The notes under the pieces: generated by a model
Seen by the model: the letters and a program-made list of their open reading frames with translations, nothing else
Database searches by the model: none
What the model was told of the DNA's origin: nothing
Assembly: GCA_038062615.1 (NCBI GenBank)
Contig: JBBTWV010000002.1
Coordinates: 1-56,491, forward strand
DNA: 56,491 nt
From: Patescibacteria group bacterium
Lineage (GTDB): Bacteria; Patescibacteriota; Gracilibacteria; UBA1369; UM-FILTER-53-11
Direction of reading: 5' to 3'
Position numbers and translations under genes: made by a program
Part shown: positions 10,954-26,154 of the stretch, piece by piece
Layout of the letters: every line of letters begins with the position of its first letter
Position numbering within the stretch: position 1 is the stretch's first letter

Positions 10954-11006
10954 TGGAAGCAGCCTACTATGGATTTCATGAAAAGTTTAGTGATACTATT
11001 CAGGCA

Positions 11007-11936
11007 ATGGATTTTAAAGGCGCTGACATCTTAAGTGCCAAACAGTTTAATCGGGGTGATATTGAAGCGGTGCTGAAAATGGCTAAAAAGATGGAGCCGT
11101 TTGCCACCAAGCAAAAGTGGGGCGATTTGCTGAAGGGAAAGCTGTTGGCGTCGCTTTTTTATGAACCTTCTACGCGCACGCGCATGTCTTTTGAGACGGC
11201 CATGCAGCGGCTGGGCGGAAGGGTGGTTTCTGCCGTGGGGATGCAGTTTTCTTCTCTTACCAAGGGCGAAACTTTATATGACACGGGCAAAATTGTGGAA
11301 AATTATGCGGACGTCATTGTTATGCGGCACCCAGATGATTTTGCCGCGGAAAAATTGGCGGTTGGTGCCAACGTGCCGGTAATGAACGCGGGTGATGGCA
11401 GCAATGAGCATCCAACACAGTCGCTTTTGGATCTTTATACCATCGAAAAGGAGATAGGGAAGATTGATGGCCTCACCATTTCCATGGTGGGGGATTTAAA
11501 GTTTGGCCGCACGGTGCATTCGCTTTCTACCATGCTTTCTCATTTTGATACGCAGCTGATTTTTGTCTCTCCTCCGGAACTTAAAATGCCGGAGTCAGTG
11601 TGCCGCCTTTTAAAGGAGAAAAATATTAAGTACCGCGAAACAGAAGACATGAGCGAGGCTATGAAGAGCTCGCAAGTCCTTTATATGACGCGCATTCAGC
11701 AAGAGCGGTTTACGGATATGAAGGAGTACGAAAAACACCGGAATCGTTATGTGCTCACGCGCGATTTGATTGAAGAAAAAAATCCCAAGCTCGTGGTGAT
11801 GCATCCGCTGCCGCGCATTTGGGAAATTCAGCAGGATGTGGATCAGGTAGCTGGCGCCGCTTATTTTAGGCAGATTCCCAATGGCGTTGCGGTGAGGATG
11901 GCGCTATTGGCGTTGGTTTTGGGAAAAAATCCTTAA
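11007..11936 (+). CDS. pyrB: Aspartate carbamoyltransferase catalytic subunit
   Basis: STRTR, HPTQ and HPLPR motifs. The tracked ORF begins at a TTG (10953) that overlaps the carA start. The first ATG at 11007 (MDFKGADIL) is the more likely start. Confidence 0.9.
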   Translation: MDFKGADILSAKQFNRGDIEAVLKMAKKMEPFATKQKWGDLLKGKLLASLFYEPSTRTRMSFETAMQRLGGRVVSAVGMQFSSLTKGETLYDTGKIVENYADVIVMRHPDDFAAEKLAVGANVPVMNAGDGSNEHPTQSLLDLYTIEKEIGKIDGLTISMVGDLKFGRTVHSLSTMLSHFDTQLIFVSPPELKMPESVCRLLKEKNIKYRETEDMSEAMKSSQVLYMTRIQQERFTDMKEYEKHRNRYVLTRDLIEEKNPKLVVMHPLPRIWEIQQDVDQVAGAAYFRQIPNGVAVRMALLALVLGKNP

Positions 11937-11963
11937 GGAGCCTTAGAACGTAGCCGATTTTTC

Positions 11964-13271
11964 ATGATTTTTGATCTTATTATAAGGAAGGCCAAAATTG
12001 TGACGCCAACAGGTGTTATTGAGGGTGATATTGGCGTACATAAGGGCATTATAAGCAAAATTGGCGGGACGATTCCGCAAAAGGCACCGGTAGAAAAAGA
12101 TGGCACGGGACTTTTTGCGTTGCCAGGCACCATTGATATGCATGTGCATTTTCGGGATCCGGGGAATCCGGAGAAGGAAGATTTTGGAACGGGATCGGCG
12201 GCGGCCGCGGCGGGCGGGGTTACCACTATTATTGATATGCCGAACACGACTCCGTCTACCACTACCTGCCAAGCCTTAGAAGAAAAGCGCGCCGCGGCCG
12301 CCTTAAAATCCCACGTAAACTACGGATTTTTCTTTGGCCTCACGCATGACAATCTCCACGAAATCAAAAATGCTAAAAACATTGCCGGCGTAAAAGTTTT
12401 CTTAGCGCAATCAACCGGCGGGCTTATGGTTCATGATTCTGCCACTATTGAAAAACTTTTTGAACTGGGCAAATTCACCATTTTTCACGCCGAAGATGAG
12501 CGGATTATCAGTGAGCATCAAAAAAAATATAAAGGTTCCGTTGACCCAAGCATTCATTCCCTCATCCGTTCTTCGGGCGCCGCTTTTGAAGCCGTAAAGT
12601 TGGTTCTTCACTTAGCCAAAAAACATAACGCACGCGTCCACATTACGCACGTCTCTTCTCAGGAAGAAGTTAAGGAACTTCGCAAATTCCACGGTCCACT
12701 CGTGAGTGCCGACTGCACGCCGCATCATCTTTTTCTCACGCAGTCCGCCTACCACGACCGTGGAAACTACGTAAAAATGAATCCGCCACTGCGCACAAAT
12801 GAAGATCGTCAAGCGCTTTGGAAAGGCCTTAAGGACGGCATTATTCAGGCTGTGGCCAGTGACCACGCACCTCACACAAAAACTGAAAAAGAAAAATCTT
12901 ATGAGCTGGCACCGGCTGGTGTTCCTGGCGTGGAAACTCTGCTGCCGCTTCTCTTAGACTCCGTAAACCACGGCGAGATTTCTTTGCGAGAAGTAGCTCG
13001 TTTTACATCCCAAAATCCTGCCGCACTCCTTGGCATTCAAAAAAAAGGAAAAATAGAAGCTGGTTTTGACGCCGACTTAGTGCTTGTAGACATGGAAAAA
13101 GAAATGGAGGTCGGCAAGCATGGGTTTTTCACAAAGTGCGGCTGGTCGCCATTTAGCGGCTGGAAGCTTAAAGGCTGGCCCATAATGACCTTCGTTGGCG
13201 GGCAAATCGTTTACGAAAACAACGCGGTGCACAAAAATATCCGAGGCAAGGAAGTTTACTTTAGCTCCTAA
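11964..13271 (+). CDS. pyrC: Dihydroorotase
   Basis: DMHVHFRDPG metal-binding motif, ASDHAPH, and a ~430-aa amidohydrolase length. Confidence 0.9.
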   Translation: MIFDLIIRKAKIVTPTGVIEGDIGVHKGIISKIGGTIPQKAPVEKDGTGLFALPGTIDMHVHFRDPGNPEKEDFGTGSAAAAAGGVTTIIDMPNTTPSTTTCQALEEKRAAAALKSHVNYGFFFGLTHDNLHEIKNAKNIAGVKVFLAQSTGGLMVHDSATIEKLFELGKFTIFHAEDERIISEHQKKYKGSVDPSIHSLIRSSGAAFEAVKLVLHLAKKHNARVHITHVSSQEEVKELRKFHGPLVSADCTPHHLFLTQSAYHDRGNYVKMNPPLRTNEDRQALWKGLKDGIIQAVASDHAPHTKTEKEKSYELAPAGVPGVETLLPLLLDSVNHGEISLREVARFTSQNPAALLGIQKKGKIEAGFDADLVLVDMEKEMEVGKHGFFTKCGWSPFSGWKLKGWPIMTFVGGQIVYENNAVHKNIRGKEVYFSS

Positions 13272-14023
13272 CTCGCCACACCAATTATCCCGCTCCCAAT
13301 TGTGGTTCCGGCGTTTGTAACAAATTCATAGGTATACATACCCGGTGAAACCGGCGTACTACTCGCATTTCGCCCATTCCAAGTGGCATAAATACTCTCG
13401 TTTGCGGGTAGAGATGTGGTCGCCGAATTGAGATTCTTCACAATGCGGCCTTGGCGATCAACTATCCTGAGTATATATCCGCCGGAAAAATCGGTATTAA
13501 ACCAATACCTGATGGTTGCCACGCTATTGGGCGATGAAAGGGAAATAGCATTGGTATCAACACTATGAGTGAGCAAGGAGGCGATGGCGATTTTCCCCGT
13601 GAGAAAAGAATTTGTTTGAGAACCGACAAAAAAACTATAGGTATATTGTCCGGCTCCATATGTTCTTCCTGCGGCGTTTTTGCCATTCCATTGAACGGTG
13701 TAATTCCCCGGCTCTACAGGAAGGTTCTTGCTCTCCACCAGAGATGCCGCTACTACTGCACCATACCTATCCATTACATCCAACCTTAAAGATGAAACGC
13801 GGCTAAGCACTTCATATTTGATTGTCACCGATTCGCCGGCCTGCGGGTAAAAAGTCGCCGGGTTGGCGCTGTGGCTTATGGAAGAAACTCTTGGCAGTAT
13901 CGGAATAGGCCGCAGTGCGCCTTTTTGTGATTTTGAACTTCCCAAATAAACGGCGGCGCCAATAACGGCGACAACAAGAATCCCCACAACTATTTGAATC
14001 ACATTTTTTGTATTTTGAGGCAT
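13268..14023 (-). CDS. Membrane-anchored protein with two beta-sandwich (FlgD-Ig-like) repeats
   Basis: N-terminal TM helix and two repeats (YTVQWNGKNAAGRTYGAGQYTYSF; ATWNGRNASSTPVSPGMYTYEF). It lies on the opposite strand between pyrC and pyrD. Confidence 0.6.
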   Translation of the reverse strand: MPQNTKNVIQIVVGILVVAVIGAAVYLGSSKSQKGALRPIPILPRVSSISHSANPATFYPQAGESVTIKYEVLSRVSSLRLDVMDRYGAVVAASLVESKNLPVEPGNYTVQWNGKNAAGRTYGAGQYTYSFFVGSQTNSFLTGKIAIASLLTHSVDTNAISLSSPNSVATIRYWFNTDFSGGYILRIVDRQGRIVKNLNSATTSLPANESIYATWNGRNASSTPVSPGMYTYEFVTNAGTTIGSGIIGVAS

Positions 14024-14122
14024 GCTCTTTTTATTAAGACAGTTTTACTATTTATATTCTACGCCATAATATGCAAATAGTCAAATTTGATCATTCCCAT
14101 GAATCACCCTACTCTGTAACAG

Positions 14123-15091
14123 ATGGTAAATCTTTCGGTAGAATTTTGCGGAGTGAAATTCAAAAATCCGCTTGTGCTGGCCTCGGGCATTTTGGGAATC
14201 ACCGCTTCTTCTTGGCGCAATGCCGTAAAACATGGCGCCGGCGGCGTAACCACCAAGTCGCTCTGGCTGCATGAGCACAAAGGGCATCGCAATCCGGTGA
14301 TTATTGCCAACGAACATTACATGCTCAATGCGGTGGGTGTTCCTGATGCCGGTACGCAAAAAGCGCAGGAAGAAATCGGGAAATTTTTGAAGTGGGGCGA
14401 GGCACCCATCATCGCCAATATTATTGCCGGGAGTGTTCATGATTTTGGTGAAACCGCAGAAGAAATTGCCCAAATTAAGCCAGATATTTTGGAGGTCAAT
14501 ATTTCTTGCCCCAATGTGGAAGATGAGTTTGGCAAGCCGTTTGCCTGTGTTGCGGGGGATGCGGCGCGTGTAACAAAAGAAGTCAAAAATCGCTTAGCCA
14601 AAATGAAGCTGAAAATTCCGGTGAGCGTAAAATTGTCACCAAATGTGGAAGACATTACCGAGATTGCCAAAGCGGTTGCGGATGCTGGTGCTGATGCACT
14701 TACGGTGATGAATTCTGCTGGGCCGGGCATGGCCATCAATATTGAAACCCGCATGCCGATTTTAGCCAATAAAGTTGGCGGCCTAACAGGGCCGGCCTTA
14801 AAACCGCTTGCGGTAAAGCTTATTTACGATATTCGCCGCGCCGGAATTAAAATTCCTATTATTGGAACCGGCGGCATACTTACCGGCCGTGATGCCATTG
14901 AGATGATGATGGTTGGAGCCACGCTTATTGGTATCGGCACCGGAGTTCATTATCGCGGCGTCGAAATCTTCAAAAAAATAACCGACGAGATGGAGGAGTG
15001 GTGCCAAGAAAATAAAGTTAAAAAAATTACCGATATTATCGGTTCGGTTCATGTCATTGCGAGCGCCGCAAAGCGGAGCGAAGCAATCTAG
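14123..15091 (+). CDS. pyrD: Dihydroorotate dehydrogenase, class 1B catalytic subunit
   Basis: NISCPN, GGLTGPALKP and IIGTGGI motifs. The last ~12 codons (VIASAAKRSEAI) and the stop codon lie inside repeat A1. Confidence 0.9.
   Translation: MVNLSVEFCGVKFKNPLVLASGILGITASSWRNAVKHGAGGVTTKSLWLHEHKGHRNPVIIANEHYMLNAVGVPDAGTQKAQEEIGKFLKWGEAPIIANIIAGSVHDFGETAEEIAQIKPDILEVNISCPNVEDEFGKPFACVAGDAARVTKEVKNRLAKMKLKIPVSVKLSPNVEDITEIAKAVADAGADALTVMNSAGPGMAINIETRMPILANKVGGLTGPALKPLAVKLIYDIRRAGIKIPIIGTGGILTGRDAIEMMMVGATLIGIGTGVHYRGVEIFKKITDEMEEWCQENKVKKITDIIGSVHVIASAAKRSEAI
15053..15091 (+). repeat. Family A repeat, left-half copy (A1)
   Basis: GTCATTGCGAGCG..AGCGAAGCAATCTAG matches the left arms of A2 and A3, with an extra CCGC-AAA-GCGG hairpin. 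Confidence 0.65.
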
Positions 15092-15112
15092 CTCGTCTCT
15101 AACACTTTTAGC

Positions 15113-15913
15113 TTGGATAACTTTCCTCACGCCGTTCGGATCAAAAAAATCATTAAAGAAACGCCGTTGGTGCGTTCCTACATTTTTGACTACCCGGTGC
15201 GCGCTCTGCCCGGCCAGTTTATTAATATTTGGATTCCGGGAGTTGATGAAAAACCGATGAGCGTAGCTTTTGATGATGGGAAAAGTTATACCCTGGCAAT
15301 TGCCGGAATTGGACATGGAACCCAGGAATTAGAAAAAAAGAAGGTGGGGGACTACATCGGCATTCGCGGTCCGTATGGAACGCACTTCACATGGAAGAAA
15401 AAAGAGCGCATCGCCATGCTAGCAGGAGGATACGGTGCTGGACCTCTCTATTTTGCCGCGGAGTTAGCGGTGGAAGAGGGGTGCCATGTGGATTTTTTCT
15501 TAGGAGCCCGCAGTAAAACGCATCTGCTTTTTGCCGACCGAATTCGCAAACTTAAAAACACGCGTTTTTTGCCATCTACTGATGATGGCTCCGCCGGTTT
15601 TAAAGGCTTCAACGTCGCCTGTTGGACGGAAAAAATGGAGGAAGGCGCCAAGTATGATCGCATTCTTACCTGCGGCCCGGAGCTTATGATGAAGAGCGTT
15701 TCGGATATCTCCTGGGGGAAAAAAATCCCCGCGCAAGTTTCTATTGAGCGCTATATGAAGTGCGGGTTTGGCATTTGCGGTAACTGCTGCGTGGATGATT
15801 TAGGTATTACCACCTGCCAAAACGGCACGGTGATGGATAATGCCGTGGCGCGTAAAATTAAGGAGTTTGGAGTTTATCATCGAGATTCCCTAGGCCGCAA
15901 ACATCAATTTTAG
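15113..15913 (+). CDS. pyrK: Dihydroorotate dehydrogenase electron-transfer subunit
   Basis: Ferredoxin-reductase-like fold and a C-terminal 2Fe-2S cysteine cluster, CGFGICGNCC. Apparent TTG start. Immediately follows pyrD. Confidence 0.85.
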   Translation: MDNFPHAVRIKKIIKETPLVRSYIFDYPVRALPGQFINIWIPGVDEKPMSVAFDDGKSYTLAIAGIGHGTQELEKKKVGDYIGIRGPYGTHFTWKKKERIAMLAGGYGAGPLYFAAELAVEEGCHVDFFLGARSKTHLLFADRIRKLKNTRFLPSTDDGSAGFKGFNVACWTEKMEEGAKYDRILTCGPELMMKSVSDISWGKKIPAQVSIERYMKCGFGICGNCCVDDLGITTCQNGTVMDNAVARKIKEFGVYHRDSLGRKHQF

Positions 15914-15921
15914 CAGGTACT

Positions 15922-15947
15922 TAGAGGGCTTAACGCATGCCCTTTAG
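15922..15947 (+). terminator. Possible intrinsic terminator after pyrK
   Basis: TAGAGGGC-9 nt-GCCCTTTA stem (one G-U pair) followed by a T-rich stretch. It sits between convergent genes. Confidence 0.35.
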
Positions 15948-15955
15948 AGAATTTT

Positions 15956-17773
15956 CTATTTTCTCTTTCTACGCTTTTTTTCCAAAGCAAGCTGGTCTTC
16001 TTGTTCTCTTCTGCGAATTTCTGCCCACGCTTCACTCGCTATTCCCTCTATTGGGAGCCTATCACCACGATTAATATGGGAATTACTAGAAAATCGGTAA
16101 CTCACCCTATTAAGTTCTTCCATAGTGAGATGGGTTTCAATAATATGGGTTTCCCAAAGATGATAGGCAACCGGAAAACTTCGCGTCCTCAAGAGTACAC
16201 CTAAAAGTGTCTTGTCAGCCTCCTCATCTGAATTTGCACAAGCTCTGATTCTGGCAACCGTGTTATCTATAAAAACGTTGTCGTGGTAACCGTCTGCCAA
16301 TTCTGCGGCAAGGTCGCGAGTTTTTTGCCATCCTCGTTCTTGGGCTTCTCGTCTCTGCACATCTTTGTGAGCTTCAAGAGATTTTGCGCGTCTTTGCAAA
16401 ATACTCGTAACATCTAATCCTCTTGCTCCACATGCTGTAACTGCTTCTTGCACAACACGTTCACTCGCCGCATACCGAGCGATTTCCGGCAACAATTCAT
16501 TCGTCAAAACGGCAGGGTAAATATTTTGAAGCACCATCCAAACCACTTCGCATGTTTCATCATCATCGCAATCTGCAAAAAAACTTTTCAGCATATGCAA
16601 ATTATCGGCACCTTGGCCAGTACACTCTATAATGGTGCCTAAAAGGTCGCACGCGGTAGCAGGGTGAGTAGCACGGATGAATTGTTTTACCAAGAAAGCA
16701 AGATGTATACCGGCATGTTCTGCGGTAGCATTTGCATACAATCTTCTGTTGATTGCCATATCATAATCAAAGGTCGGTTCGGTTCTTATTCTTTCGGCAC
16801 GGGCAAGGATAAAACTTCGGTAAACTGGAGATGCATCTCTCAAAACTCTTGTAACTTCCCTTTTACCGGTTCTCACTAATGCAGCACTTTTACTCACTGC
16901 CGCAACAGCTCTGTCGCCGGTATCATCCGCAACTGTCATAATATGAGGCGTTTCATCTGGAGCATCTCCCGGAGGATCCAGTCCCTGTTCGTAAAAACTT
17001 TCTTGGTAAGCAACCTCATCTTGCAAAGCTAAAAGATCTTTAAGCCGTGGAAAGTCCTGCATGTCACTGCCAACTTTTCTCAAAATTTGTTCGCCAACCT
17101 CTCTTTGTTCCTCATCAGGAAGTTGGAATTTATATTGTACTTTAATGGTGCCAAGTCTAGGACTCTCACCCAAATTGAGCGTTTCTTCAATCTCTTTCAA
17201 TAAATCAACAAATGCTTGAATCAGACGCTCTTCAAAATCTCTTCCTGGGGCTTTAGATTCCATGAGCATTCCCATGCTTATAACTGCCTGCGGAGGAACA
17301 GAAGTGTCACGTTTTACTGTTACCAGTTCTACAAATTTTGCTGGTATGGCGGTGGCTAAATCGCCTGCTTGGCGCTCACCGATGATATTGATAAGTTTTT
17401 CCAGAGTTATAATATCGTGTGTGGACAATACTTTCCCCCCTCTTTTGTCCCATTCAACCGTTTCGGTTTTTTCCATGGGTAAATGGAGTATCTCGCTTAT
17501 AGCGTAGTGTCCAGCAAGTTCACTGAACACAACACCATAATCAATTATGAGTAAGTCTATTTTTCGCATGGTTTCTCTATATGCCTCTAAAGAAGTCGGA
17601 TGTTTTTTTTGCTGTGCAACGAGTACTTGTATCTTGGTGGTAATTTCAACAATATTGCGGAGTGCCAGCATTAAGTACTCCAGCAGCAGTTGGAGCCGGT
17701 CGGGTATCTGATTTTCAAAAATGACTAAACGAGTCGCTCCAGATGGCGGGCTTTTATCGAGGCTTTTTCCCAT
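15956..17773 (-). CDS. Orphan 605-aa protein, cassette copy 1 (paralog of 21073-22731); function unknown
   Basis: Long ORF with a leaderless-type promoter. It shares conserved blocks with its paralog (TVEWDK, QAFVDLLK, YQESF, LHMLK.FF, ETCE.VW, FIDNTVARIRAC). I recognise no known catalytic motif. Confidence 0.75.
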   Translation of the reverse strand: MGKSLDKSPPSGATRLVIFENQIPDRLQLLLEYLMLALRNIVEITTKIQVLVAQQKKHPTSLEAYRETMRKIDLLIIDYGVVFSELAGHYAISEILHLPMEKTETVEWDKRGGKVLSTHDIITLEKLINIIGERQAGDLATAIPAKFVELVTVKRDTSVPPQAVISMGMLMESKAPGRDFEERLIQAFVDLLKEIEETLNLGESPRLGTIKVQYKFQLPDEEQREVGEQILRKVGSDMQDFPRLKDLLALQDEVAYQESFYEQGLDPPGDAPDETPHIMTVADDTGDRAVAAVSKSAALVRTGKREVTRVLRDASPVYRSFILARAERIRTEPTFDYDMAINRRLYANATAEHAGIHLAFLVKQFIRATHPATACDLLGTIIECTGQGADNLHMLKSFFADCDDDETCEVVWMVLQNIYPAVLTNELLPEIARYAASERVVQEAVTACGARGLDVTSILQRRAKSLEAHKDVQRREAQERGWQKTRDLAAELADGYHDNVFIDNTVARIRACANSDEEADKTLLGVLLRTRSFPVAYHLWETHIIETHLTMEELNRVSYRFSSNSHINRGDRLPIEGIASEAWAEIRRREQEDQLALEKKRRKRK

Positions 17774-17917
17774 AGGGTGTATTAAACACTAAATTGGCTA
17801 ATTAGTCAACTGGTCGTTTAACCTGTTAAATCTCGTCAAAATAGATCACCTGTGCAGAATTTATTGACGCTCAAACGCATAAGGGAGTAACATAAGGGTG
17901 TAATATTATTACACCCT
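17774..17917. promoter_or_regulatory. Divergent promoter/operator region of cassette copy 1
   Basis: Minus strand: TTGACT (17809-17804), 17 nt, TTTAAT (17786-17781), 7 nt, ATG. AGGG(T/A)GTAA-like motif at 17774-17783, 17882-17891 and 17895-17904, and inverted at 17908-17917. The last two form a 10-bp perfect palindrome that abuts the RHH ATG. Confidence 0.55.
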
Positions 17918-18253
17918 ATGAAGACCCCTTACCGTAAAAAAGTAAAATCAAAATACGCTATTAAGCTGAAGCATATTCCCGTTCTGCCTCCGCTTGGGTC
18001 GGGGTTGTTGTTAGGTAAGAAAGGGCCGCGCAAAAAAGTAAATTTCATGGTGGATCTCAATATTTTAGAAGGCATGAAAATTTTTGTGCCTTTTGGAGAT
18101 AGAAGCGACTTTGTGAATGATGCGGTGGCTTATGCGCTCAAAAAGGCTGCTCAGCGAGAAGCCATGGAATTTATGGATAAAGTTCGGAAAGAAGGGAAGT
18201 TACAGATGACCGACAAGGAGATTAAAGAAGCGATTAATTATGGCCGAAAATAA
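17918..18253 (+). CDS. Ribbon-helix-helix (CopG/VapB-like) antitoxin, copy 1
   Basis: RHH signature KKVNFMVDLNILEGM...GDRSDFVNDAVAYAL. Overlaps the downstream PIN gene by 14 nt. Confidence 0.8.
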   Translation: MKTPYRKKVKSKYAIKLKHIPVLPPLGSGLLLGKKGPRKKVNFMVDLNILEGMKIFVPFGDRSDFVNDAVAYALKKAAQREAMEFMDKVRKEGKLQMTDKEIKEAINYGRK

Positions 18254-18680
18254 ATCTCTCTTCGTCGTAGATGCCTCGGTTCTTTTGAAGTGGTATCTCA
18301 AAGAAGAAAATGATCAAGAACCCGCTTTGCAGCTGCAAACAGACTACCACTACGATAAGATTTCTCTCGCGATTCCGCACTATGCTTGGTCGGAGGTATT
18401 GAATACATTGGGAAGAAAAAAATCCTTTGATGAAGTACTTGCCTATTTTTCGCGTTATTTAGCCTTTGAAATACAGGAATATTCCATCACGCTTGAAATT
18501 GCAGCCGTGGCCATTGAACTTATGGAAAAGTTCCCTAATATAACCTTTTACGATGCCGGTTATCATGCTTTGGCGCTCCAAGAAGGAGGTACTTTTGTAA
18601 CCGCTGATGAAAAATATTTCCAAAAAACAAAAAAGCATGGCGGCATCATGCTCTTGAAAGACTACGGCAAGAAACGCTAG
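18240..18680 (+). CDS. vapC: PIN-domain (VapC-like) toxin, copy 1
   Basis: LFVVDASVLLKW, FYDAGYHALA and TADEKY supply the acidic PIN residues. 146 aa, translationally coupled to the RHH gene. Confidence 0.85.
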   Translation: MAENKSLFVVDASVLLKWYLKEENDQEPALQLQTDYHYDKISLAIPHYAWSEVLNTLGRKKSFDEVLAYFSRYLAFEIQEYSITLEIAAVAIELMEKFPNITFYDAGYHALALQEGGTFVTADEKYFQKTKKHGGIMLLKDYGKKR

Positions 18681-18700
18681 ACTGCCGCAGATGGGTAAGG

Positions 18701-18841
18701 AGTTCTCTAACAGGCCAAGCCGCAGCTCGAGCCAAGGCGAAGATGCCGAATCAAGAAGATTCGGCTTGGCTAAGCAATTAACTCGCCCAAATGATGCTAA
18801 GGCATCAAGCAGAGCAAGCGGCGATGAGGGCGAAACTTCGG
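18701..18841 (+). repeat. Family B nested-hairpin repeat (B1), inserted into a duplicated pyrE 5' fragment
   Basis: TAACAGGCCAAGCCG...CGGCTTGGCTAAGCAATTAACTCGCCC...GAGGGCGAAAC matches the reverse complement of B2-B4. It is absent from the otherwise identical site at 24035/24036. Confidence 0.7.
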
Positions 18842-18874
18842 CTCAAGAAATCGCCGTGTCTCCTTTGGAAAATT

Positions 18875-20317
18875 ATGAATCCTATTTCTCTCGCCGATTT
18901 TAAAACGGCCCATGAGCCAAGAGCTTACGTTAATTCGAGCATTCGCTTTCATCATGAATTCTCGCAGCGCGAACGTCTTAAAGCCGCGCAAAAAGCCGGC
19001 TGGAATGTTTTTCAATTTCCTTCAGAAATGCTGAAAGGAGGTGATCTGCTCTCCGATTCGGGAACAACGACCATGACGGTGGAACAAGTTGCCGCGATGT
19101 TTCTTGGCGATGAAGCTTACGGAAGCAATTACGGCTATTTCCAGCTTCTTGAAACTTTTGAAGAAGTATTCGGAATTCCTTCCCAACAAACTGAAGTTTT
19201 TTTCTTCCATCAAGGCCGGGCGGCCGAACATGCTCTCTTTTCACAAATTGGAAAATTTGGCGAGCACCTCATTATTCCCAGCAACGGTCATTTTGATACC
19301 ACCCGTGCCAACATAGAAAATAATCGCATTGCGGCAAAAGATTGTTTTTCGCCACAACTTCATTCAAAGCAAACGGCACCTTTTAAAGGAAATATGGATT
19401 TGGCGGTTTTAGAGCGGATTCTGCAGGAAAATTCCCAAAATATTCCTCTTGTTTATGTCACTATCACCAACAACAGCGGCGGCGGGCAGCCGGTTTCGCT
19501 GGCCAATATAAAGGCTGTAAGAAAACTTTGCGACCACTATGCTAAGCCGTTATTTTTGGATGCCTGCCGTTTTGCCGAAAACTCTTGGTTTATTAAAGCT
19601 CGCGAAAAAGAATACGCCGGCAGAACCGTCCGAAATATTGTAAAAGAAATTTTCGCCCTCTGCGACGGATTTACCATCTCTCTCAAAAAGGACGGCTTGG
19701 CCAACATGGGAGGTGCGCTTGTCATCAAAAAAAAGAGTCCGCTTGTAGGTGAGCATCCGCGCCTTTTAAATGATATTCGGGATCATCAAATTCTCACCGA
19801 AGGTCATCCCACCTACGGCGGCCTTTCCGGCCGTGACATTATGACGCTTTGTGTGGGGCTTAAAACGGCCGTTACCGAGCAGTATCTCAAAAGCCGCATC
19901 GGTTTGGTGCATGAATTCGGACGCATGCTTAAAAAGGCAAAAGTTCCCGTACTGGAACCTTTTGGCGGACATGCCATATATTTAGATATGGACAAATTTT
20001 TTGTTAAAACCAAGCATCAGCGTGCGGATTTTGGCGGTATTGCTTTCACCGGTTTGTTGCTCCTCAAGGGCGTTCGTCTTTGCGAACTCGGCGCTTTTGC
20101 TTTTGGGGAAAATCATCCTCATAATTTTGTCCGCGCGGCGGTTCCCCGCAATAAATACGAACTGGAAGATCTTGCCTATGTTGCCGATTGCATCCAGGGG
20201 CTTTATGAAAAACGCCGCGAAATTCCGCGGGCCGTTCCGGTATATGGCCGCGACTTAACACTTCGCCATTTTAAGGCGAGGTTTAAGCTGGAGGCTTTTT
20301 CCTCATTAGTTAGCTGA
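18875..20317 (+). CDS. Beta-eliminating lyase (tryptophanase / tyrosine phenol-lyase family), PLP-dependent
   Basis: DLLSDSGTTTM, GDEAYGS, HQGRAAEH, and a PLP-lysine context SLKKDGLANMGGAL resembling TnaA. The tracked ORF start (18791) runs through repeat B1, so the ATG at 18875 (MNPISLADF) is preferred. Confidence 0.85.
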   Translation: MNPISLADFKTAHEPRAYVNSSIRFHHEFSQRERLKAAQKAGWNVFQFPSEMLKGGDLLSDSGTTTMTVEQVAAMFLGDEAYGSNYGYFQLLETFEEVFGIPSQQTEVFFFHQGRAAEHALFSQIGKFGEHLIIPSNGHFDTTRANIENNRIAAKDCFSPQLHSKQTAPFKGNMDLAVLERILQENSQNIPLVYVTITNNSGGGQPVSLANIKAVRKLCDHYAKPLFLDACRFAENSWFIKAREKEYAGRTVRNIVKEIFALCDGFTISLKKDGLANMGGALVIKKKSPLVGEHPRLLNDIRDHQILTEGHPTYGGLSGRDIMTLCVGLKTAVTEQYLKSRIGLVHEFGRMLKKAKVPVLEPFGGHAIYLDMDKFFVKTKHQRADFGGIAFTGLLLLKGVRLCELGAFAFGENHPHNFVRAAVPRNKYELEDLAYVADCIQGLYEKRREIPRAVPVYGRDLTLRHFKARFKLEAFSSLVS

Positions 20318-20414
20318 TTTCTCCCTGTTAGGCTCTTAGGGAATCTCTGAAAAACATCTTGCAAGCTGCGATTATTGTATTTTGGCCGCAAACACCTATT
20401 CGCAAAATAAAAGT

Positions 20415-20443
20415 TTGCACTAACGCTGCTAGTGCGCTATAAT
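20415..20443 (+). promoter_or_regulatory. Promoter TTGCAC-17 nt-TATAAT with inverted repeat GCACTA/TAGTGC in the spacer; ATG 6 nt after the -10
   Basis: TTGCAC at 20415-20420, TATAAT at 20438-20443, ATG at 20450. Confidence 0.55.
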
Positions 20444-20449
20444 ACGCCT

Positions 20450-20677
20450 ATGTCGAATCTTACCATCCGTATCAATGAAAATTTAAAGAAGAAGGCTGCA
20501 AAAGAAGCAGGCAAGCTTGGCATATCCCTTACGTTTGTGGTGATTAATGCCCTTAACCATTTTATTGAATCACCTAAAATTACCATTGGCGAACCGGAAG
20601 ATGTTATGGTGACCCCTGATCTTCAAAAGAGCATGGATACCATTGGCAGGCTGATATCCAAAAAGCAGCGTAAATGA
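20450..20677 (+). CDS. RelB/DinJ-type ribbon-helix-helix antitoxin
   Basis: MSNLTIRINENLKKKAAKEAGKLGISLTFVVINAL is typical of an RHH N-terminus. Its stop overlaps the next ATG (ATGA). The tracked GTG start at 20432 lies inside the promoter. Confidence 0.7.
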   Translation: MSNLTIRINENLKKKAAKEAGKLGISLTFVVINALNHFIESPKITIGEPEDVMVTPDLQKSMDTIGRLISKKQRK

Positions 20678-21054
20678 GACTCATCCTTACTGATTCAATC
20701 AAAAAGAGTGAGCTCTCGCCGCTGGAGAAGGTTTTTCCGTTGAAAGTCATTCAAATTGCTGCACGGAAAGCGCTTTTAGGGCTGGGGGAATCCATAAAAA
20801 ATCCCATGAAAGTTCCTTTTACTTGCCTCAAAAAACTTTATCTGACAGGAACAAGCGGCGCAGGGCGCGTCATCTTTTTACTGCTTACCAATGAACAGCA
20901 ATCTGTCTTGGTAATGCTCAGGCACAAAAATGACAAAAAAATCGGGGCAAACATGGCGATACAAAATCCGCGATTTAAGGGACTTTTGGAACGGAATTTA
21001 AACCTTATTGCCAAGGATCTTCAAAACGGTAAATTTGAAGCCAGCGAAATTTGA
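20674..21054 (+). CDS. Putative RelE/ParE-superfamily toxin
   Basis: 126 aa, coupled to the antitoxin. GAGRVIFLLLTNEQQSVLVMLRHKND resembles the RelE/ParE beta-strand plus hR(K) pattern. The assignment is tentative. Confidence 0.55.
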   Translation: MRLILTDSIKKSELSPLEKVFPLKVIQIAARKALLGLGESIKNPMKVPFTCLKKLYLTGTSGAGRVIFLLLTNEQQSVLVMLRHKNDKKIGANMAIQNPRFKGLLERNLNLIAKDLQNGKFEASEI

Positions 21055-21072
21055 TTATCTCGGCCTTCTTTT

Positions 21073-22731
21073 TCAGGAAGCTTTTGGCTTTCGCCTGTCA
21101 ATTTCCGCACTTGCTTCTTTCCATATCTCATCGCACGGATGCTTACCACCCCAAGGATTAAATCTTTCTGTGACTTTATCAAGTTCTTCATCGCTCATGT
21201 GTGATTCAATGATATGCTTTGACCACAAATACCAGGCCGTGTACAGGTTGGTATGCAGCAATACATTTACAAGAATTTTTCTGGCTTCTTCCTCGGAAGT
21301 TGTGCAAGCCCTTATTCTTGCCACCGTGTTATCAATGAATTTTCCGTCAGGTTCCTTGTCCCTCAACTCGGCGGTAAGGTCGCGAATTTTTTTATAATTT
21401 CTATCTCGAGCTTCCTGGCTCTTAACCTCACGGTGTGCCACAAGTGATCCTGCACGTTTTTCTAAAATGCTCTCGGCGTCCAGTCCTCTTGTCCGACATT
21501 CGGCGATGGCGGCCTGGGCAACGCGATCGCTCGTGGTATATAGGGCTATCTCTGCCAACAGCTCGTTCGTCAAAACAGGCTCATAATTTTGCAATTCATC
21601 CCAGACTGCCTCACACGTTTCTAGATCTTCACACCAAACAAAGAAAGTTTTTAGCATGTGCAGAAAGTCCGTGCCTTCATCAAAAGATTCCATGATCATG
21701 TGGAGGAGCGCACATGCGGAATAGGCATGGGTCGCGGCATGGAACTGGTCTACTAAGAATGTCCGATGTAAGCCTACATGCTCCTCGGTTGCTGTGGCAT
21801 GCCATTCTCTCGCTACTCCTCGATAATAATCAAAGGTGATTTCAGTTCTGATGCTTTGTGCACGGGCTAACATGAACCTTTGATATGGAGGAGATACGGC
21901 GGCGAGCACTTCAAGGACTTGTCTTCTCCCATGATTCACCAAGGCAGAGCTTTTATCCACAACCGCAAGAGCGCTCTCGCCAACTCCTTCCGTCATGGAT
22001 GCAATATCGGCGGTTTCATAAGTGGGCTCCGCAGGAGGTTCCATCCCTTGCTCCAAAAAACTTTCCTGGTAGGTAAGGCTATCTCTCAAATCCAAAAGAT
22101 CGCCTATCCTTGGAAATTCCTCAGTATTGCTACCAACTTTTTGTAAAATTCTTTCGGCAACGCGTCTTCGCTCATCATCATCCATTTTAAATTTATAGCG
22201 CGTTTCTATAATTCCTATCGCCGGTCTCCTACTATGGAGGTTGTTCTCAATCTGCTTGAGTAAATCAACAAATGCTTGAGTGAGCCGTTCCGCAAAATCT
22301 TTTTCTGGAGTGTAAGGTTTCATATCCATATCGGTGGATAGTGGTCTAAGCTTTTGGCGGTGCACAGCCAAGTCCACAAAGTCTTGCGGTGCATGGACCG
22401 TAAGGTTGGAAACCTGCTGCTCACTTATTAATTTCAAAACAGTTCCGATAGTTGAAATATCTTTTGTAGATATTACTTTTTCGCCTATTTTGTCCCATTC
22501 AACGGTTCGAATTTCTTCCATTTGCAAATTCAGTATTTCGCCAACAGCGTAATGTCCCACCAGCATGCTCATTTCGAGGCTATAATCAGCTATTAGGTTA
22601 TTAATTTCCAATATGGTTTTTTGATATGCAGTTAAGGTAGTTGGGTGTTCTCTTTGCTCTGTTACAAGTTTTTGTGCGGTCGTAGAGATTTCGATGAGTT
22701 TTCTCATCCCTCTTATTAAATAATTCAGCAA
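21073..22731 (-). CDS. Orphan protein, cassette copy 2 (paralog of 15956-17773), N-terminally disrupted by a frameshift
   Basis: 552-aa ORF from an internal TTG. The homologous ATG is at 22781 in another frame. One extra C in the C5 run (22755-22759) would restore MDKPSGETPQIPDKLEPLLNYL, which aligns with copy 1. Confidence 0.7.
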   Translation of the reverse strand: MLNYLIRGMRKLIEISTTAQKLVTEQREHPTTLTAYQKTILEINNLIADYSLEMSMLVGHYAVGEILNLQMEEIRTVEWDKIGEKVISTKDISTIGTVLKLISEQQVSNLTVHAPQDFVDLAVHRQKLRPLSTDMDMKPYTPEKDFAERLTQAFVDLLKQIENNLHSRRPAIGIIETRYKFKMDDDERRRVAERILQKVGSNTEEFPRIGDLLDLRDSLTYQESFLEQGMEPPAEPTYETADIASMTEGVGESALAVVDKSSALVNHGRRQVLEVLAAVSPPYQRFMLARAQSIRTEITFDYYRGVAREWHATATEEHVGLHRTFLVDQFHAATHAYSACALLHMIMESFDEGTDFLHMLKTFFVWCEDLETCEAVWDELQNYEPVLTNELLAEIALYTTSDRVAQAAIAECRTRGLDAESILEKRAGSLVAHREVKSQEARDRNYKKIRDLTAELRDKEPDGKFIDNTVARIRACTTSEEEARKILVNVLLHTNLYTAWYLWSKHIIESHMSDEELDKVTERFNPWGGKHPCDEIWKEASAEIDRRKPKAS

Positions 22732-22781
22732 TGGCTCAAGCTTGTCTGGGATTTGGGGGTTTCACCAGATGGCTTGTCCAT

Positions 22782-22935
22782 AAGGTGCATATTAAACACT
22801 AAATTAACAGATAAGTCAACAGGTTCGTAACCTGTTATGTCTGATGGTAGGTTTTAAAACTGGGTTGGCGACTCAGAATCAATTGATGTTCAAAATCGTA
22901 TGGAGTAACATAAGGGTGTAACAATCTTACTCCCT
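22782..22935. promoter_or_regulatory. Divergent promoter/operator region of cassette copy 2
   Basis: Conserved TTGACT (22819-22814), 17 nt, TTTAAT (22796-22791). Operator-like motifs at 22902-22909 and 22913-22922, and inverted at 22926-22935. Confidence 0.5.
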
Positions 22936-23268
22936 ATGAACACCCCCCGCAAAAAAGTAAAAGCCAAATACGCTATCAAACTCAAACATTTTCCTGTTTG
23001 TCCTCAATTTGGATCTGCGTTTTTTGGCTCAGGGAAAAGACCTCGGAAGAAAGTAAATTTTATGGTGAATATGGATCTTTTGGAAGCCATAACATTTTTG
23101 GTCCCTTCGGGTAGCAGGAGCGAATTTGTAAATGAAGCCGTGGAAGAAGCTCTCAGGGATTTTGCCCGAAGAAAAGCAATAGAGGCGATGGATGAATTTC
23201 GTAGGAAAAATAAATGGAAAATGACGGACGAAGAAATTCGTAAAGCTATCAATTATGGTCGCAAATAG
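22936..23268 (+). CDS. Ribbon-helix-helix (CopG/VapB-like) antitoxin, copy 2
   Basis: Paralog of 17918-18253 (KKVNFMVNMDLLEAI...GSRSEFVNEAVEEAL). Intact. Confidence 0.8.
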   Translation: MNTPRKKVKAKYAIKLKHFPVCPQFGSAFFGSGKRPRKKVNFMVNMDLLEAITFLVPSGSRSEFVNEAVEEALRDFARRKAIEAMDEFRRKNKWKMTDEEIRKAINYGRK

Positions 23269-23695
23269 GCCGCTCTTCATTGTTGATGCCTCTGTGATTT
23301 TAAAGTGGTTCCTCTTTGAGCCGGATTCCCAGGAACAGTCACTCCATCTCCGGCGAGATTATTTTGAGAGGAAGGTGGAGCTAGCTGTTCTTAACTATAC
23401 TTATGCTGAAATTTTGAATACTTTAGGGCGAATTCTCCCCCAAGAGAAAGCGCTTTCGGCCTTTTCTCAGCTGTTGATGTATCAATTGCAGTAATACCAT
23501 ACCACTATGGAATTAGCTTCGATGGGTTGCGAACTCATGAAGAATTTTTCTGGTGTCACCTTTTATGATTCTGGTTATCATGCCTTGGCTCTACAGGAAG
23601 GTGGCACATTTATAACCGCCGATGAAAAATATTTCCAAAAAACAAAGAAACAAGGCGGGGTAATGCTCTTGAAAGACTACGGCAAGAAACGCTAG
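23255..23695 (+). pseudogene. vapC: PIN-domain toxin, copy 2, interrupted by an in-frame TAA at 23492-23494
   Basis: The two ORFs 23255-23494 and 23507-23695 are in the same frame and align collinearly with copy 1. The TAA aligns with GAA (Glu) of copy 1. Confidence 0.75.
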
Positions 23696-24011
23696 GAGCT
23701 GTACGCCTTTTGCAATAATTATTTTTTATTTAATAATCCACAGGCGATAGCAAAACCTGCGCTTATTATGGCTATTCCTATGCTTGCACTTGCTGGTGCA
23801 TTTTCCCAAAGCCAAAGCGGAGCCGTTACTATATTTGCTGCAAAAAATATTGAAAGGAAAAAATAAATTTTGTGCATAAATTTAATGAAATAAAATACAA
23901 CAGTTGGTATTTTATCCTTTTTTACTATGGCGTACAACATCCGCGCCACTCGTGCCTAGAATCCAGATCTGCTAGAATACAACCATCCCAAGCTCGTTAT
24001 GCTAACAGCTC
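23696..24011. mobile_element. 316-bp insertion with 7-bp terminal inverted repeats (GAGCTGT/ACAGCTC) flanked by duplicated CTAG
   Basis: Copy 1 reads ...GAAACGCTAG|ACTGCCGCAGATG. Copy 2 reads ...GAAACGCTAG|GAGCTGT...ACAGCTC|CTAG|ACTGCCGCAGATG. Confidence 0.55.
23719..23949 (-). CDS. Small two-TM hydrophobic protein carried on the 316-bp insertion
   Basis: 76-aa ORF with two hydrophobic helices (IYFFLSIFFAANIVTAPLWLW; IGIAIISAGFAIACGLL) in a region that looks AT-rich by eye. Confidence 0.45.
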   Translation of the reverse strand: MARMLYAIVKKDKIPTVVFYFIKFMHKIYFFLSIFFAANIVTAPLWLWENAPASASIGIAIISAGFAIACGLLNKK

Positions 24012-24025
24012 CTAGACTGCCGCAG

Positions 24026-24676
24026 ATGAACAAGGCTCAAGAAATCGCCAAAATCCTACTCGACATCGGGGCTGTGAAGGTGAGCATGGATCCGCCGTTT
24101 ACGTGGACCTCTGGCATAAAATCTCCGGTATATTGTGATAACCGCAAACTTATTTCGCATCCCAAAGAGCGGCAGGCGGTGGTAAAAGCATTCGCTGATT
24201 TGGTGCGCGAAAAAAAACTGGATCCGGAATATATTGGCGGAACCGCCACGGCGGCCATTCCTTGGGCGGCATTTTTGGCTTATGAGCTCAACTTACCCAT
24301 GGTGTATATTCGTCCGGAAAAAAAGGAACACGGTGCGGGCCGGCAAGTGGAAGGGGATCTGCCGCCTGGCAAACGCGTCCTCATTGTGGAGGATCTTATT
24401 TCTACCGGTGGATCTTCGGTAAATGCGGCTAAAGCCGTACAGCAAGAATGCCAAGGCGTGGTTACGGATGTGCTTGCGATTGTTACTTACGAATTAGATG
24501 AAGCTCAGCAAAAATTCCAGGAATCCGGTTTGCATATTTCTACGCTTACGAATTTTTCAAATATTATCGGTTTGGCGCTTGAGCGCGGGAATATTACACA
24601 AGAACAATGGGGAAAAATTTTGGAATTTAGAAAAAATCCAAGAAGTTGGTTTTCAGTTTTTGGGCTGGAATCATAG
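24026..24676 (+). CDS. pyrE: Orotate phosphoribosyltransferase
   Basis: PRPP-binding motif VLIVEDLISTGGS and TSGIKSPVYCDNR. The ATG at 24026 (MNKAQEIA) is preferred over the tracked start at 23999, which lies inside the insertion. Confidence 0.9.
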   Translation: MNKAQEIAKILLDIGAVKVSMDPPFTWTSGIKSPVYCDNRKLISHPKERQAVVKAFADLVREKKLDPEYIGGTATAAIPWAAFLAYELNLPMVYIRPEKKEHGAGRQVEGDLPPGKRVLIVEDLISTGGSSVNAAKAVQQECQGVVTDVLAIVTYELDEAQQKFQESGLHISTLTNFSNIIGLALERGNITQEQWGKILEFRKNPRSWFSVFGLES

Positions 24677-24690
24677 GGACCTCTCGTATT

Positions 24691-25065
24691 TTACCCTGGA
24701 ACATTTTCACTATCAGAAAATGCTGGTGTGCCAGGCAGATCTTCTGTGTCTATATTTTGTTCTCGCCGGAGATGGGGAACTGTTGTAGGCAGGTTTGGAG
24801 GCAGCGTTGGTGATGGCGATGGTTGCGGTCCAAAACCGGATGATGGTGTCTGCGGCGGCTTAAAATGGTCCCATGCGTGTGCGGCACCCAGTGCGGTTCC
24901 AGCACTAAATAATATAAGAGCCAGGGTATTTCTTCGGACCCAATTCCCAATATCACGAAGAGGTGTTGCACGCTTAACACGCTGCAATATGGGTGATTTT
25001 CGGTGTAACACGCCGTATGGTAACGCGTGGCGCTCCACCTCAAGGGCTGAGTTCCTTCCCTCCAT
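24691..25065 (-). CDS. Hypothetical single-TM, proline-rich protein
   Basis: 124-aa ORF with the TM helix LALILFSAGTALGAAHAW and a P/S/T-rich tail. Competing ORFs overlap it on both strands, so this is uncertain. Confidence 0.4.
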   Translation of the reverse strand: MEGRNSALEVERHALPYGVLHRKSPILQRVKRATPLRDIGNWVRRNTLALILFSAGTALGAAHAWDHFKPPQTPSSGFGPQPSPSPTLPPNLPTTVPHLRREQNIDTEDLPGTPAFSDSENVPG

Positions 25066-25188
25066 AAATAGATAGGATATAAGTCTTCATCATCCGTGAT
25101 TTTTCCGGTTTCTGTCAAGAAAATGAACAAATTATGGCATTCTCTCGGTTCGGATTATTTGACGTGATAAATAATATATTGTAGATAT

Positions 25189-26154
25189 ATGCATGGGGAA
25201 ATGAGTATAATGCAACCAATGCCAAAACAATCACTCAATTTTGCAGACCGGCTGGTAGCCGCAATCAAACAAAAAGGTACGCCTGTTTGCGTGGGTTTGG
25301 ATCCACGGCTGGAAAATATTCCATCTTTTTTGAAGACGAAACATATTCATGAAAAAGGCAGAAGTTTTGTGGCGGCGGCGGATACATTTTTAGAATTTAA
25401 TAAAGGTATCATTGATGCGATTCATGACTTGGTCCCAGCGGTAAAGCCGCAGTTTGCTTTTTATGAGCAGTATGGATTTTCGGGCGTTTGGGCTTTTGAA
25501 GAGACGTGTAAGTATGCGCAAGAAAAAGGACTCATGGTTATTGCGGACGCAAAGTGCAATGATATTGGGACGACCGCCGAGGCTTATGCCAATACTTTTT
25601 TGGGTGAGACGGATGTGTTTGGTGAAAAAGTTTCCGTGATGGACTGTGACGCCGTTACGGTGAATCCTTATTTGGGATACGATGGCGTGAAGCCGTTTAT
25701 GGAGGTTTGTAAAAAACGTGGGAAAGGAATTTTTGTGCTCGTGAAAACTTCCAACCCGTCATCCGGAGATTTGCAAGATCGCATGACGGAGGACAAGTTG
25801 CGCAACTATGAAGTGACGGCACACTTGCTGGAAGCTTGGGGGGCTGATGAAATTGGGAAGTGCGGGTATAGCTCTATTGGCGCGGTGGTTGGAGCCACGT
25901 ATCCAGATGAAGCGGCGCGACTGCGAAAAGTAATGCCGCATGTTTATTTTTTAGTCCCGGGTTATGGGGCACAAGGTGCCAAGGCTAAAGATGTAAAAGC
26001 CTGCTTTAATGAAGATGGACTTGGAGCGCTTATTAACAACGGTCGCGATATTATTTTTGCTTGGGAAAAATCAGAGACTTCCGAGAAGGATTATGCGGCG
26101 GCAGCGCGTGTGGCGGTTCTAGAAATGAAAAAGAAGTTGGCGGAATTGTTTTAA
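25189..26154 (+). CDS. pyrF: Orotidine-5'-phosphate decarboxylase, type 2
   Basis: VCVGLDP and VIADAKCNDIG (the DxKxxD motif), with a ~320-aa long-form length. The exact start among several early Met codons is uncertain. Confidence 0.85.
   Translation: MHGEMSIMQPMPKQSLNFADRLVAAIKQKGTPVCVGLDPRLENIPSFLKTKHIHEKGRSFVAAADTFLEFNKGIIDAIHDLVPAVKPQFAFYEQYGFSGVWAFEETCKYAQEKGLMVIADAKCNDIGTTAEAYANTFLGETDVFGEKVSVMDCDAVTVNPYLGYDGVKPFMEVCKKRGKGIFVLVKTSNPSSGDLQDRMTEDKLRNYEVTAHLLEAWGADEIGKCGYSSIGAVVGATYPDEAARLRKVMPHVYFLVPGYGAQGAKAKDVKACFNEDGLGALINNGRDIIFAWEKSETSEKDYAAAARVAVLEMKKKLAELF

Follow-up and report, generated by a model that had tools for sequence, protein, structure and literature searches.

Stepwise local filling of a variable, toxin–antitoxin-rich slot between pyrK and pyrE as the probable history of a pyrimidine gene neighbourhood in a groundwater Peregrinibacteria population

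How do two neighbouring genes of pyrimidine biosynthesis come to lie 8.1 kb apart, with three toxin–antitoxin-like gene pairs between them? The question is raised by a stretch of 56,491 nt (positions 1 to 56,491 of contig JBBTWV010000002.1, assembly GCA_038062615.1), here called the window, in which pyrK ends at 15913 and pyrE starts at 24026. A preliminary description of this DNA took the intervening segment (15956-24011) for a horizontally acquired island, stabilised by toxin–antitoxin (TA) addiction within a housekeeping operon. Gene calls with Pfam and NCBIfam agree with the separation of the two genes, and the segment is indeed rich in TA genes, with three type II-like pairs within 8 kb. 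A better description of the locus is that of a variable slot, at the boundary between transcription units, which was filled step by step with an old TA pair as its nucleus and is now decaying. We put the probability at roughly 0.7 that the filling grew in place by layers, next to a pyrE gene with a promoter of its own, and that the pyr genes form a conserved neighbourhood and not one operon.

The left border of the slot is pyrK (15113-15913, plus strand), encoding the electron-transfer subunit of dihydroorotate dehydrogenase B and recognised by the Pfam models NAD_binding_1 and DHODB_Fe-S_bind. The right border is the orotate phosphoribosyltransferase gene pyrE (23999/24026-24676, plus strand; Pfam Pribosyltran), whose counterparts in relatives, 72-78% identical, align from the Met at 24026. 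Synteny was compared in 15 or more related Peregrinibacteria (individual loci are denoted L001 and so on). In six genomes (L002/L088, L007, L008, L011, L014 and L015) the slot is empty, pyrK and pyrE being 15-322 nt apart, which bears out the earlier view of the segment as accessory; in seven it is partly filled. The simplest filling, found in L004, L101 and L005/L090 (whose pyrE is of another type), is a pair of genes encoding a ribbon-helix-helix (RHH)-like putative antitoxin and a PIN-domain putative toxin, giving the order pyrK-RHH-PIN-pyrE. This pair is preceded by a gene for a 273-aa protein in L089, and by genes for a 424-aa protein and a tryptophanase-family lyase in L001, whose pyrK is 78% identical to that of the window. 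In the closest relative, L132 (pyrK 84% identical), pyrK is followed after 8 nt by the lyase, a 36-codon remnant of the PIN 3' end, pyrE and pyrF. The comparison that the preliminary description had proposed, whether pyrK and pyrE are adjacent elsewhere, thus found adjacency in six genomes, but also graded partial fillings. Some of the slot's genes occur in relatives with housekeeping-like conservation, which is part of what that description said would speak against an island. Specific to the window are two ORFans, a RelB/HigB-like pair, a segmental duplication and two small inserts.

RHH-PIN is found directly 5' of pyrE in at least six other lineages, L132 retaining the 3' remnant only. Because of this synteny (L001, L004, L005/L090, L089, L101 and the remnant in L132), the pair is a long-standing resident beside pyrE. 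The window holds it twice. RHH_A (17918-18253, plus strand) encodes a putative antitoxin of 111 aa and overlaps by 14 nt the start of PIN_A (18240-18680, plus strand). PIN_A encodes a VapC-like putative toxin that looks intact: it matches Pfam PIN (PF01850) with E=5.6e-13 and 50 bits against a cut-off of 23.6, and inspection of the translation found the acidic residues typical of PIN domains. RHH_B (22936-23268, plus strand; 110 aa) is 59% identical to RHH_A. PIN_B (23255-23695, plus strand) is a pseudogene: a TAA in frame at 23492-23494, before the last two acidic residues, takes the place of the GAA of PIN_A. Its identity to PIN_A is 46% in the N-terminal part and 76% in the C-terminal part. 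The RHH signal in the 110/111-aa proteins is weak (RHH_6, E=0.055; 56B_RHH, E=0.0043 in the L005 orthologue). The two orphan/RHH/PIN cassettes of the preliminary description are therefore a real, diverged direct duplication, but one with a broken toxin gene in the second copy and an RHH label that sits on weak matches. Within both RHH-like genes (17930-18042; 22945-23057), 96 nt that encode the N-terminal 'RKKV' segment are duplicated in frame; their products are for this reason 110-111 aa long, against 80-83 aa for the orthologues that precede PIN in all relatives. This internal duplication is older than that of the cassette.

Within the cassettes, each pair stands with a long minus-strand gene, ORFan A (15956-17773) or ORFan B (21073-22731). 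The DNA from 16218 to 18680 aligns in direct orientation to 21284-23695 with 63% identity, and the alignment extends into the start of pyrE: 18677-18693 equals 24012-24028 (17/17) and 18840-18855 equals 24034-24049 (16/16). The copied unit therefore ended inside pyrE, taking in its first 8 codons, and the junction is marked by a pyrE 5' remnant beside the lyase (18677-18855, plus strand), whose two parts (18677-18700 and 18840-18855) are split by a 138-nt insert. Amino acid identity between the paralogues is 50% for the ORFans, 59% for RHH and 58% for PIN, with dN/dS values of 0.22, 0.15 and 0.13, respectively, and dS of 1.8-2.4 for all three. By these values, the three genes were duplicated as one unit long ago and have evolved under purifying selection since. 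The A and B copies are mutually closest (58-59% identical versus 38-52% to orthologues), and the duplication is therefore specific to the window lineage.

The lyase gene (18875-20317, plus strand; 480 aa), of the tryptophanase/tyrosine phenol-lyase (TPL) family of pyridoxal phosphate enzymes, was named correctly in the preliminary description: it scores 466 bits against a cut-off of 285 for NF009709 (tryptophanase subfamily) and matches Pfam Beta_elim_lyase with E=2.5e-56. It falls short of the equivalog cut-offs for TnaA (339 < 750) and TPL (293 < 721). The copies that L132 and L001 carry at this locus share 75% identity with it, and dN/dS is 0.07-0.10 as compared to 0.06 for the pyr genes; the lyase is ancestral to the subclade of the window, L132 and L001, and is under strong purifying selection. 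In L132 the gene (10798-12360) is on the same strand as the pyrE and pyrF genes that follow it, and there it seems to belong to the pyr transcription unit. In other genomes the lyase never has pyr genes beside it, and it is distributed patchily over the Candidate Phyla Radiation (CPR) and DPANN. It is 72% identical in a metagenome-assembled genome (MAG) whose pyrK is only 47% identical, and 51-54% identical in archaea, a pattern that suggests horizontal spread at an earlier time.

What would allow such a slot to take up DNA without harm to pyrE is suggested by the end of the PIN gene. Its final 35 nt, including the TAG stop codon, present the promoter-like motif TTGAAA-N18-TAGACT, and the pyrE ATG lies 7-10 nt further on. 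The motif is found at the same site before pyrE, at this distance from the ATG, in L001, L002, L004, L089 and L132; in L002 it lies in a 51-nt pyrK-pyrE spacer without TA genes. In the window it has one match versus 0.17 expected, the duplicated copy at 18654-18683 (plus strand), which overlaps the PIN_A stop codon and faces the lyase. Among eight aligned loci, the DNA block ATGCTCTTGAAAGA is invariant in six, differs by a single change (AAG) in L101 and is divergent in L005. The block takes in two Leu codons, which are six-fold degenerate, and is conserved even though protein identity elsewhere in PIN is only about 45%. In L132, RHH and most of PIN are deleted and the promoter-bearing end of PIN is kept exactly. 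We infer that TTGAAA-N18-TAGACT is a putative pyrE promoter.

A mechanism can be proposed on this basis. pyrE would be read from its own sigma70-like promoter and, as this ends only 7-10 nt short of the ATG, the transcript may be leaderless or nearly so. With a promoter of its own, DNA inserted upstream would not be polar on pyrE, which would explain the slot's tolerance of cargo. Since the last codons and the stop of PIN overlap this promoter, deletions of the toxin gene would have to spare the PIN 3' end, and the TA pair may be held doubly, by ordinary addiction and by sharing DNA with the promoter of a gene that the cell needs. Through the duplication, a further copy of the promoter would have come to lie before the lyase. 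In the native pyrE copy, a 312-nt insert landed in the -10 element (between CGCTA and GACT); target duplication restored TAGACT, and the -35 was shifted 312 nt away. With -35 and -10 split in this way, pyrE is probably read from upstream or from within the insert.

Five layers can be distinguished in the filling. The first is the old VapBC-like pair abutting pyrE, and the second the lyase, common to the two nearest relatives. A third, confined to the window, consists of the RelB-like/RelE-fold pair and an ORFan of 550-600 aa. The fourth is the ancient segmental duplication of ORFan, RHH and PIN together with the first 8 pyrE codons. Later decay forms the fifth, with the nonsense codon in PIN_B, the 312-nt insertion, which resembles a miniature inverted-repeat transposable element (MITE), and the 138-nt insertion.

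The MITE-like insertion (23696-24007; no strand) lies inside the -10 of the pyrE promoter motif with a TA/CTAG target duplication. As the preliminary description had noticed, it is bounded by terminal inverted repeats (TIRs): a perfect 11-nt inverted repeat, CTAGGAGCTGT/ACAGCTCCTAG, is found at 23692-23702 and 24005-24015, and unit A supplies the uninterrupted empty-site sequence CGCTAGACTGCC. Its right end is also present in another contig, of run X1, with different flanks (a partial copy); no further copy was found in the window, and an exact-match scan of a collection of genome contigs for the element's end found none. With MITEs it shares its non-autonomous nature, the TIRs, the short target duplication and at least one other, partial copy in the same metagenome. 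It differs in that its TIRs are very short (7-8 nt past the palindromic CTAG), no parent transposase was identified and it carries a 76-codon open reading frame (ORF) of doubtful status. This ORF (23719-23949, minus strand) has a codon-usage score of -0.07, on a scale where confident genes score 0.27+/-0.07 and shadow ORFs at most 0.135, and was not called in other assemblies; it does not look coding. The 138-nt insert (18701-18838), which splits the pyrE remnant 3' of PIN_A, holds a GCCGAATC/GATTCGGC hairpin. Contigs of three runs match its region up to 18829 and then diverge, and part of it is therefore repeated elsewhere in the community.

The third TA-like pair follows the lyase. Its first gene (20450-20677, plus strand; 75 aa from the Met at 20450) encodes a putative RelB/DinJ/Arc-like RHH antitoxin, with matches to NCBIfam RelB/DinJ (E=2.4e-5, below the cut-off) and to a PHROG Arc-like repressor (E=1.6e-4). 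The second (20674-21054, plus strand) encodes a putative toxin of 126 aa, for which no Pfam or NCBIfam family and no sequence-profile match was found. Four homologues are 50-70% identical; in both contexts that were examined (P0005 and P0006) a 70-aa gene stands before the homologue, and the neighbourhoods are unrelated. An AlphaFold2 model (pLDDT 80, pTM 0.78) gave HigB2 (5jaa_D) as the top Foldseek match (probability 0.99, E=5e-3, TM-scores 0.47/0.55), followed by a Streptococcus pneumoniae TA module (6af4), BrnT and ParE2, and the earlier name of RelB/RelE-like pair is reasonable at the level of the predicted fold. Like RelBE and HigBA systems, the pair has an RHH (RelB/DinJ/Arc-like) gene that overlaps a partner of about 120 aa by 4 nt, a predicted partner fold closest to HigB2, with BrnT and ParE2 lower, and it moves as a unit in other genomes. 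Unlike them, the 126-aa protein matches none of the Pfam or NCBIfam RelE/ParE/HigB models, its fold similarity is modest (TM about 0.5) and it has an additional C-terminal helix and strand.

The RHH-PIN pair can be compared with VapBC in the same manner. Immediately 5' of the RHH_A start codon is a repeat motif resembling an operator/promoter, GGAGTAACATAAGGGTGTAATATTATTACACCC (17884-17917, plus strand). This motif of about 35 nt, with two GGnGTAAyATwA repeats and an inverted TTACnCC, is kept right before the RHH start in both units of the window and in L001, L004 and L005, where the flanks are not conserved. It overlaps a promoter-like TTGACG-18-TAACAT at 17864-17893, and four of the six GGGTGTAATA-like sites in the window fall in the two cassette intergenic regions. 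The motif fits a putative autoregulatory operator. Thus, as in VapBC systems, a small 5' gene overlaps the start of the PIN gene by 14 nt, Pfam recognises the PIN domain, a repeat or palindromic motif lies over the promoter as in autoregulated TA operons, and one copy (PIN_B) is decaying, which is common among redundant chromosomal TA systems. The differences are an antitoxin fold that is only weakly RHH-like, synteny across several species directly 5' of pyrE, and a PIN 3' end that overlaps the conserved promoter-like motif of the downstream gene. No described case of the 3' end of a TA system overlapping the promoter-like motif of a downstream gene is known to us, no exhaustive search having been made.

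How does the older idea fare, that the 8-kb segment landed as a block in a housekeeping operon and was kept there by TA addiction? We consider this unlikely, although several observations agree with it: the segment is missing from the six genomes with an empty slot, it carries three TA-like pairs, and both the RelB/toxin pair and the lyase are found in unrelated contexts elsewhere. Its GC content is 43.4% versus 46.4%, 3 points down and the lowest of all 8-kb windows, the tetranucleotide distance reaches z=2.4 at 8 kb (tied with the unrelated region 44-52 kb), and the ORFans and the 126-aa toxin gene have codon scores of 0.14-0.18 versus 0.27, which for the ORFans is 1.3-1.7 SD below the mean. 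However, at 2.5 kb the distance is at most about 1.8-1.9 and there is no compositional outlier. None of the ORFs of 15956-24011 matched an integrase, recombinase or transposase in Pfam, NCBIfam, PADLOC or PHROGs, tRNA and Rfam scans of the whole window were negative, and the slot borders have no att site, the sole border repeat being the pyrE 5' remnant of the duplication. Further against the island, RHH-PIN and lyase stand at the same locus in relatives with orthologue- or housekeeping-like divergence, the second cassette is an in-place duplicate with pyrE's own first codons, and L004, L101, L132 and L001 present graded intermediates, not one block that is present or absent. An origin from a phage or plasmid was rejected, there being no PHROG or mobility match. 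Variants of the population without the island, which the preliminary description had suggested looking for, were not seen: no island-less joint occurs in the contigs of two runs over 12500-27000, where contig depth is even (about 8x and 6.5x). The segment is thus not a recently imported mobile island. The acquisition reading is partly supported, by the patchy lyase and by the RelB/HigB-like module in unrelated contexts, but not as one block.

The ORFan genes raise a different alternative. ORFan A encodes 605 aa (571 aa if a Met further downstream is the start) and ORFan B 552 aa; both are predicted to be all-alpha, and the two are 50% identical over 561 aa. No homologue other than each other was found in a word-indexed search of 5.8 billion clusters or in an exhaustive HMMER profile search of 1.84 billion representatives, a scope described overall as about 15 billion proteins, and there was no match in Pfam, NCBIfam, PADLOC, PHROGs or a PDB sequence profile. 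The AlphaFold2 model has a pLDDT of 52 and is confident for residues 350-605 only (the C-terminal ~250), and Foldseek searches of PDB and BFVD yielded nothing beyond generic alpha-solenoid matches with TM <0.2. The ORFans are nevertheless real genes, because they are long ORFs with dN/dS of 0.22 and a codon score (0.18 in ORFan A) above every shadow ORF. It has to be considered whether ORFan, RHH and PIN are one functional module, such as a tripartite TA or defence system, co-regulated from the divergent intergenic region and duplicated whole. The three genes were duplicated together with similar dS, both ORFans are under purifying selection, the divergent intergenic region retains conserved blocks (D5 and D6), and an extra operator-like GGGTGTATTA copy at 17775-17784 touches the ORFan A start, a weak hint and the sole one for co-regulation. 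On the other side, six relatives have RHH-PIN without any ORFan, an ORFan homologue occurs nowhere else and thus gives no co-occurrence signal, ORFan B is intact despite the broken PIN_B, PADLOC has no match and the poor fold model matches nothing. A common function for the three is accordingly improbable. We would offer only as a speculation that the ORFans may be a new protein family in a three-gene module of a CPR lineage, sharing a divergent operator-bearing region with RHH-PIN, and that PIN is perhaps entrenched in that its 3' end is the pyrE promoter.

It is very improbable that the arrangement is an assembly artefact, in which two strain variants, or a repeat that was collapsed or expanded, were joined through the 33 nt shared by the PIN 3' ends: the depth is low (6-8x), and in both runs the breaks between Logan contigs fall exactly on 18651-18677 and 23666-23692, but the depth is even over all pieces in two runs, the cassettes are only about 63% identical in DNA and so cannot be collapsed alleles, an independent European Nucleotide Archive (ENA) assembly covers the 126-aa toxin gene, ORFan B, RHH_B, PIN_B, the insert, pyrE and pyrF, and the pyrE 5' remnant beside the lyase is a natural duplication scar.

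Several points weigh against growth in place by layers beside an independent pyrE promoter. A plain tandem duplication predicts a second copy of the lyase, RelB-like and toxin genes 5' of ORFan A, and none is there; an extra deletion or a non-tandem copy event must therefore be assumed. As for the timing of events, dS is saturated between the copies and for orthologues too, and gives no order of duplication and speciation. The junction of PIN_A and lyase across the 33-nt exact repeat is backed by the window contig alone, and since the two runs consist of low-depth contigs, rare island-less variants could have escaped. As regards the promoter, a generic promoter scan was not enriched relative to shuffled sequence (24 versus 22.3+/-5.1), and constraint on the protein, or gene conversion between A and B, might instead account for the conservation of the PIN 3' end. 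Separately, in run X3 one low-depth contig joins 15840 (pyrK 3' end) to 18647 (PIN_A 3' end), skipping 2806 nt. This joint has 22 nt on its shorter side and was judged too weak to interpret; it could come from a relative in which pyrK is followed by the promoter-bearing PIN end, or be a chance match.

The window, a complete contig, belongs to a population of Candidatus Peregrinibacteria (CPR/Patescibacteria) in Hainich groundwater. Pieces of it are identical in the ENA assembly Hain_PNK108_H32_02um and in run ERR3858122, and the closest relatives of its pyrK all come from Peregrinibacteria/Peribacteria MAGs. Complete nucleotide synthesis is a recognised peculiarity of this CPR group (PMC4736985). 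The remaining pyr genes, assigned with Pfam and NCBIfam, are carA (9880-10953, minus strand), pyrB (10953-11936), pyrC (11964-13271), pyrD (14123-15091) and pyrF (25189-26154), the last four on the plus strand. The collinearity described earlier therefore holds for pyrB, pyrC, pyrD, pyrK, pyrE and pyrF, but not for carA, which is divergent from pyrB. On the far side of carA, and adjoining it, is a gene for a protein of 808 aa with three S-layer homology (SLH) domains (6727-9153); a second SLH-repeat region lies at ~3511-3792, and relatives have SLH proteins on the same side of the cluster. In the pyrK-pyrF gap of more distant Peribacteria (L005/L090, L006, L009, L012, L013 and L017), an E. coli-type orotate phosphoribosyltransferase replaces the window-type pyrE, a non-orthologous replacement within the same neighbourhood.

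Two further boundaries, pyrC-pyrD and pyrE-pyrF, are probably slots like pyrK-pyrE, with different accessory DNA in different species. In the window the pyrC-pyrD slot holds a minus-strand gene (13268-14023) for a membrane-anchored surface protein of 251 aa with a transmembrane helix at its N-terminus and two FlgD Ig-like domains (Pfam FlgD_ig, E=3.3e-12; CHU_C-like, E=4e-5); the slot is empty in L132 and filled with 3.7 kb including HicAB in L001, where the HicA/HicB pair (8427-9010) stands immediately 5' of pyrD. The pyrE-pyrF spacer (24677-25188, no strand) is lineage-specific and 512 nt long, compared to a distance of 7-38 nt in L132, L002 and L004, and is not homologous to the genes found in this slot in the relatives L001 (154 aa) and L089 (137 aa). 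A second minus-strand gene had been described here (24691-25065). Whereas the one at 13268-14023 is borne out by its FlgD_ig domains, this ORF has a codon score of -0.04, in the non-coding range, overlaps two further ORFs, is missing from the gene calls of two more assemblies of this DNA (L082/L085) and returned nothing in a homologue search; it does not look coding and is not supported as a gene. In L017 a different, unrelated RHH-PIN pair precedes pyrF, between pyrE and pyrF, and TA pairs (this one and HicAB of L001) thus occur repeatedly in different slots of the pyr cluster across the phylum. In distant Peribacteria the pyrK-pyrE slot itself has unrelated cargo, namely a gene for a 1357-aa protein in L010 and a HAD hydrolase gene in L012 and L013. 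Runs X3 and X4, from a different study, have a 2-nt 'TG' insertion after 15069, near the pyrD end, and substitutions clustered in the FlgD_ig gene (13727-13997), which indicates a related strain in another data set.

With genomic islets or hotspots between core genes, this neighbourhood shares content that varies at fixed sites across related genomes and cargo that is rich in TA modules, surface proteins and genes of unknown function. It differs in that pyrK-pyrE has no recombinase, tRNA or att signature, its growth was mainly by local duplication and small insertions, and lyase and RHH-PIN are vertically conserved. The locus is thus of an ordinary kind, unusual only in the promoter overlap and in the pair of paralogues without relatives, and these two features leave the current understanding unchanged unless they are confirmed by experiment.

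A TA-rich gap in a biosynthetic gene cluster, then, need not mean a recent mobile island. The series of empty slot, TA pair only, lyase with TA pair, lyase with TA remnant, and the full duplicated state records a locus that grew and decayed locally, one step at a time, in a reduced CPR genome. The ORFan pair, under purifying selection and with relatives absent from public data, enlarges the pool of lineage-restricted CPR genes. If it is true that the end of a toxin gene serves as the promoter of the downstream pyrE, this would be a simple route to a TA module that is hard to delete.

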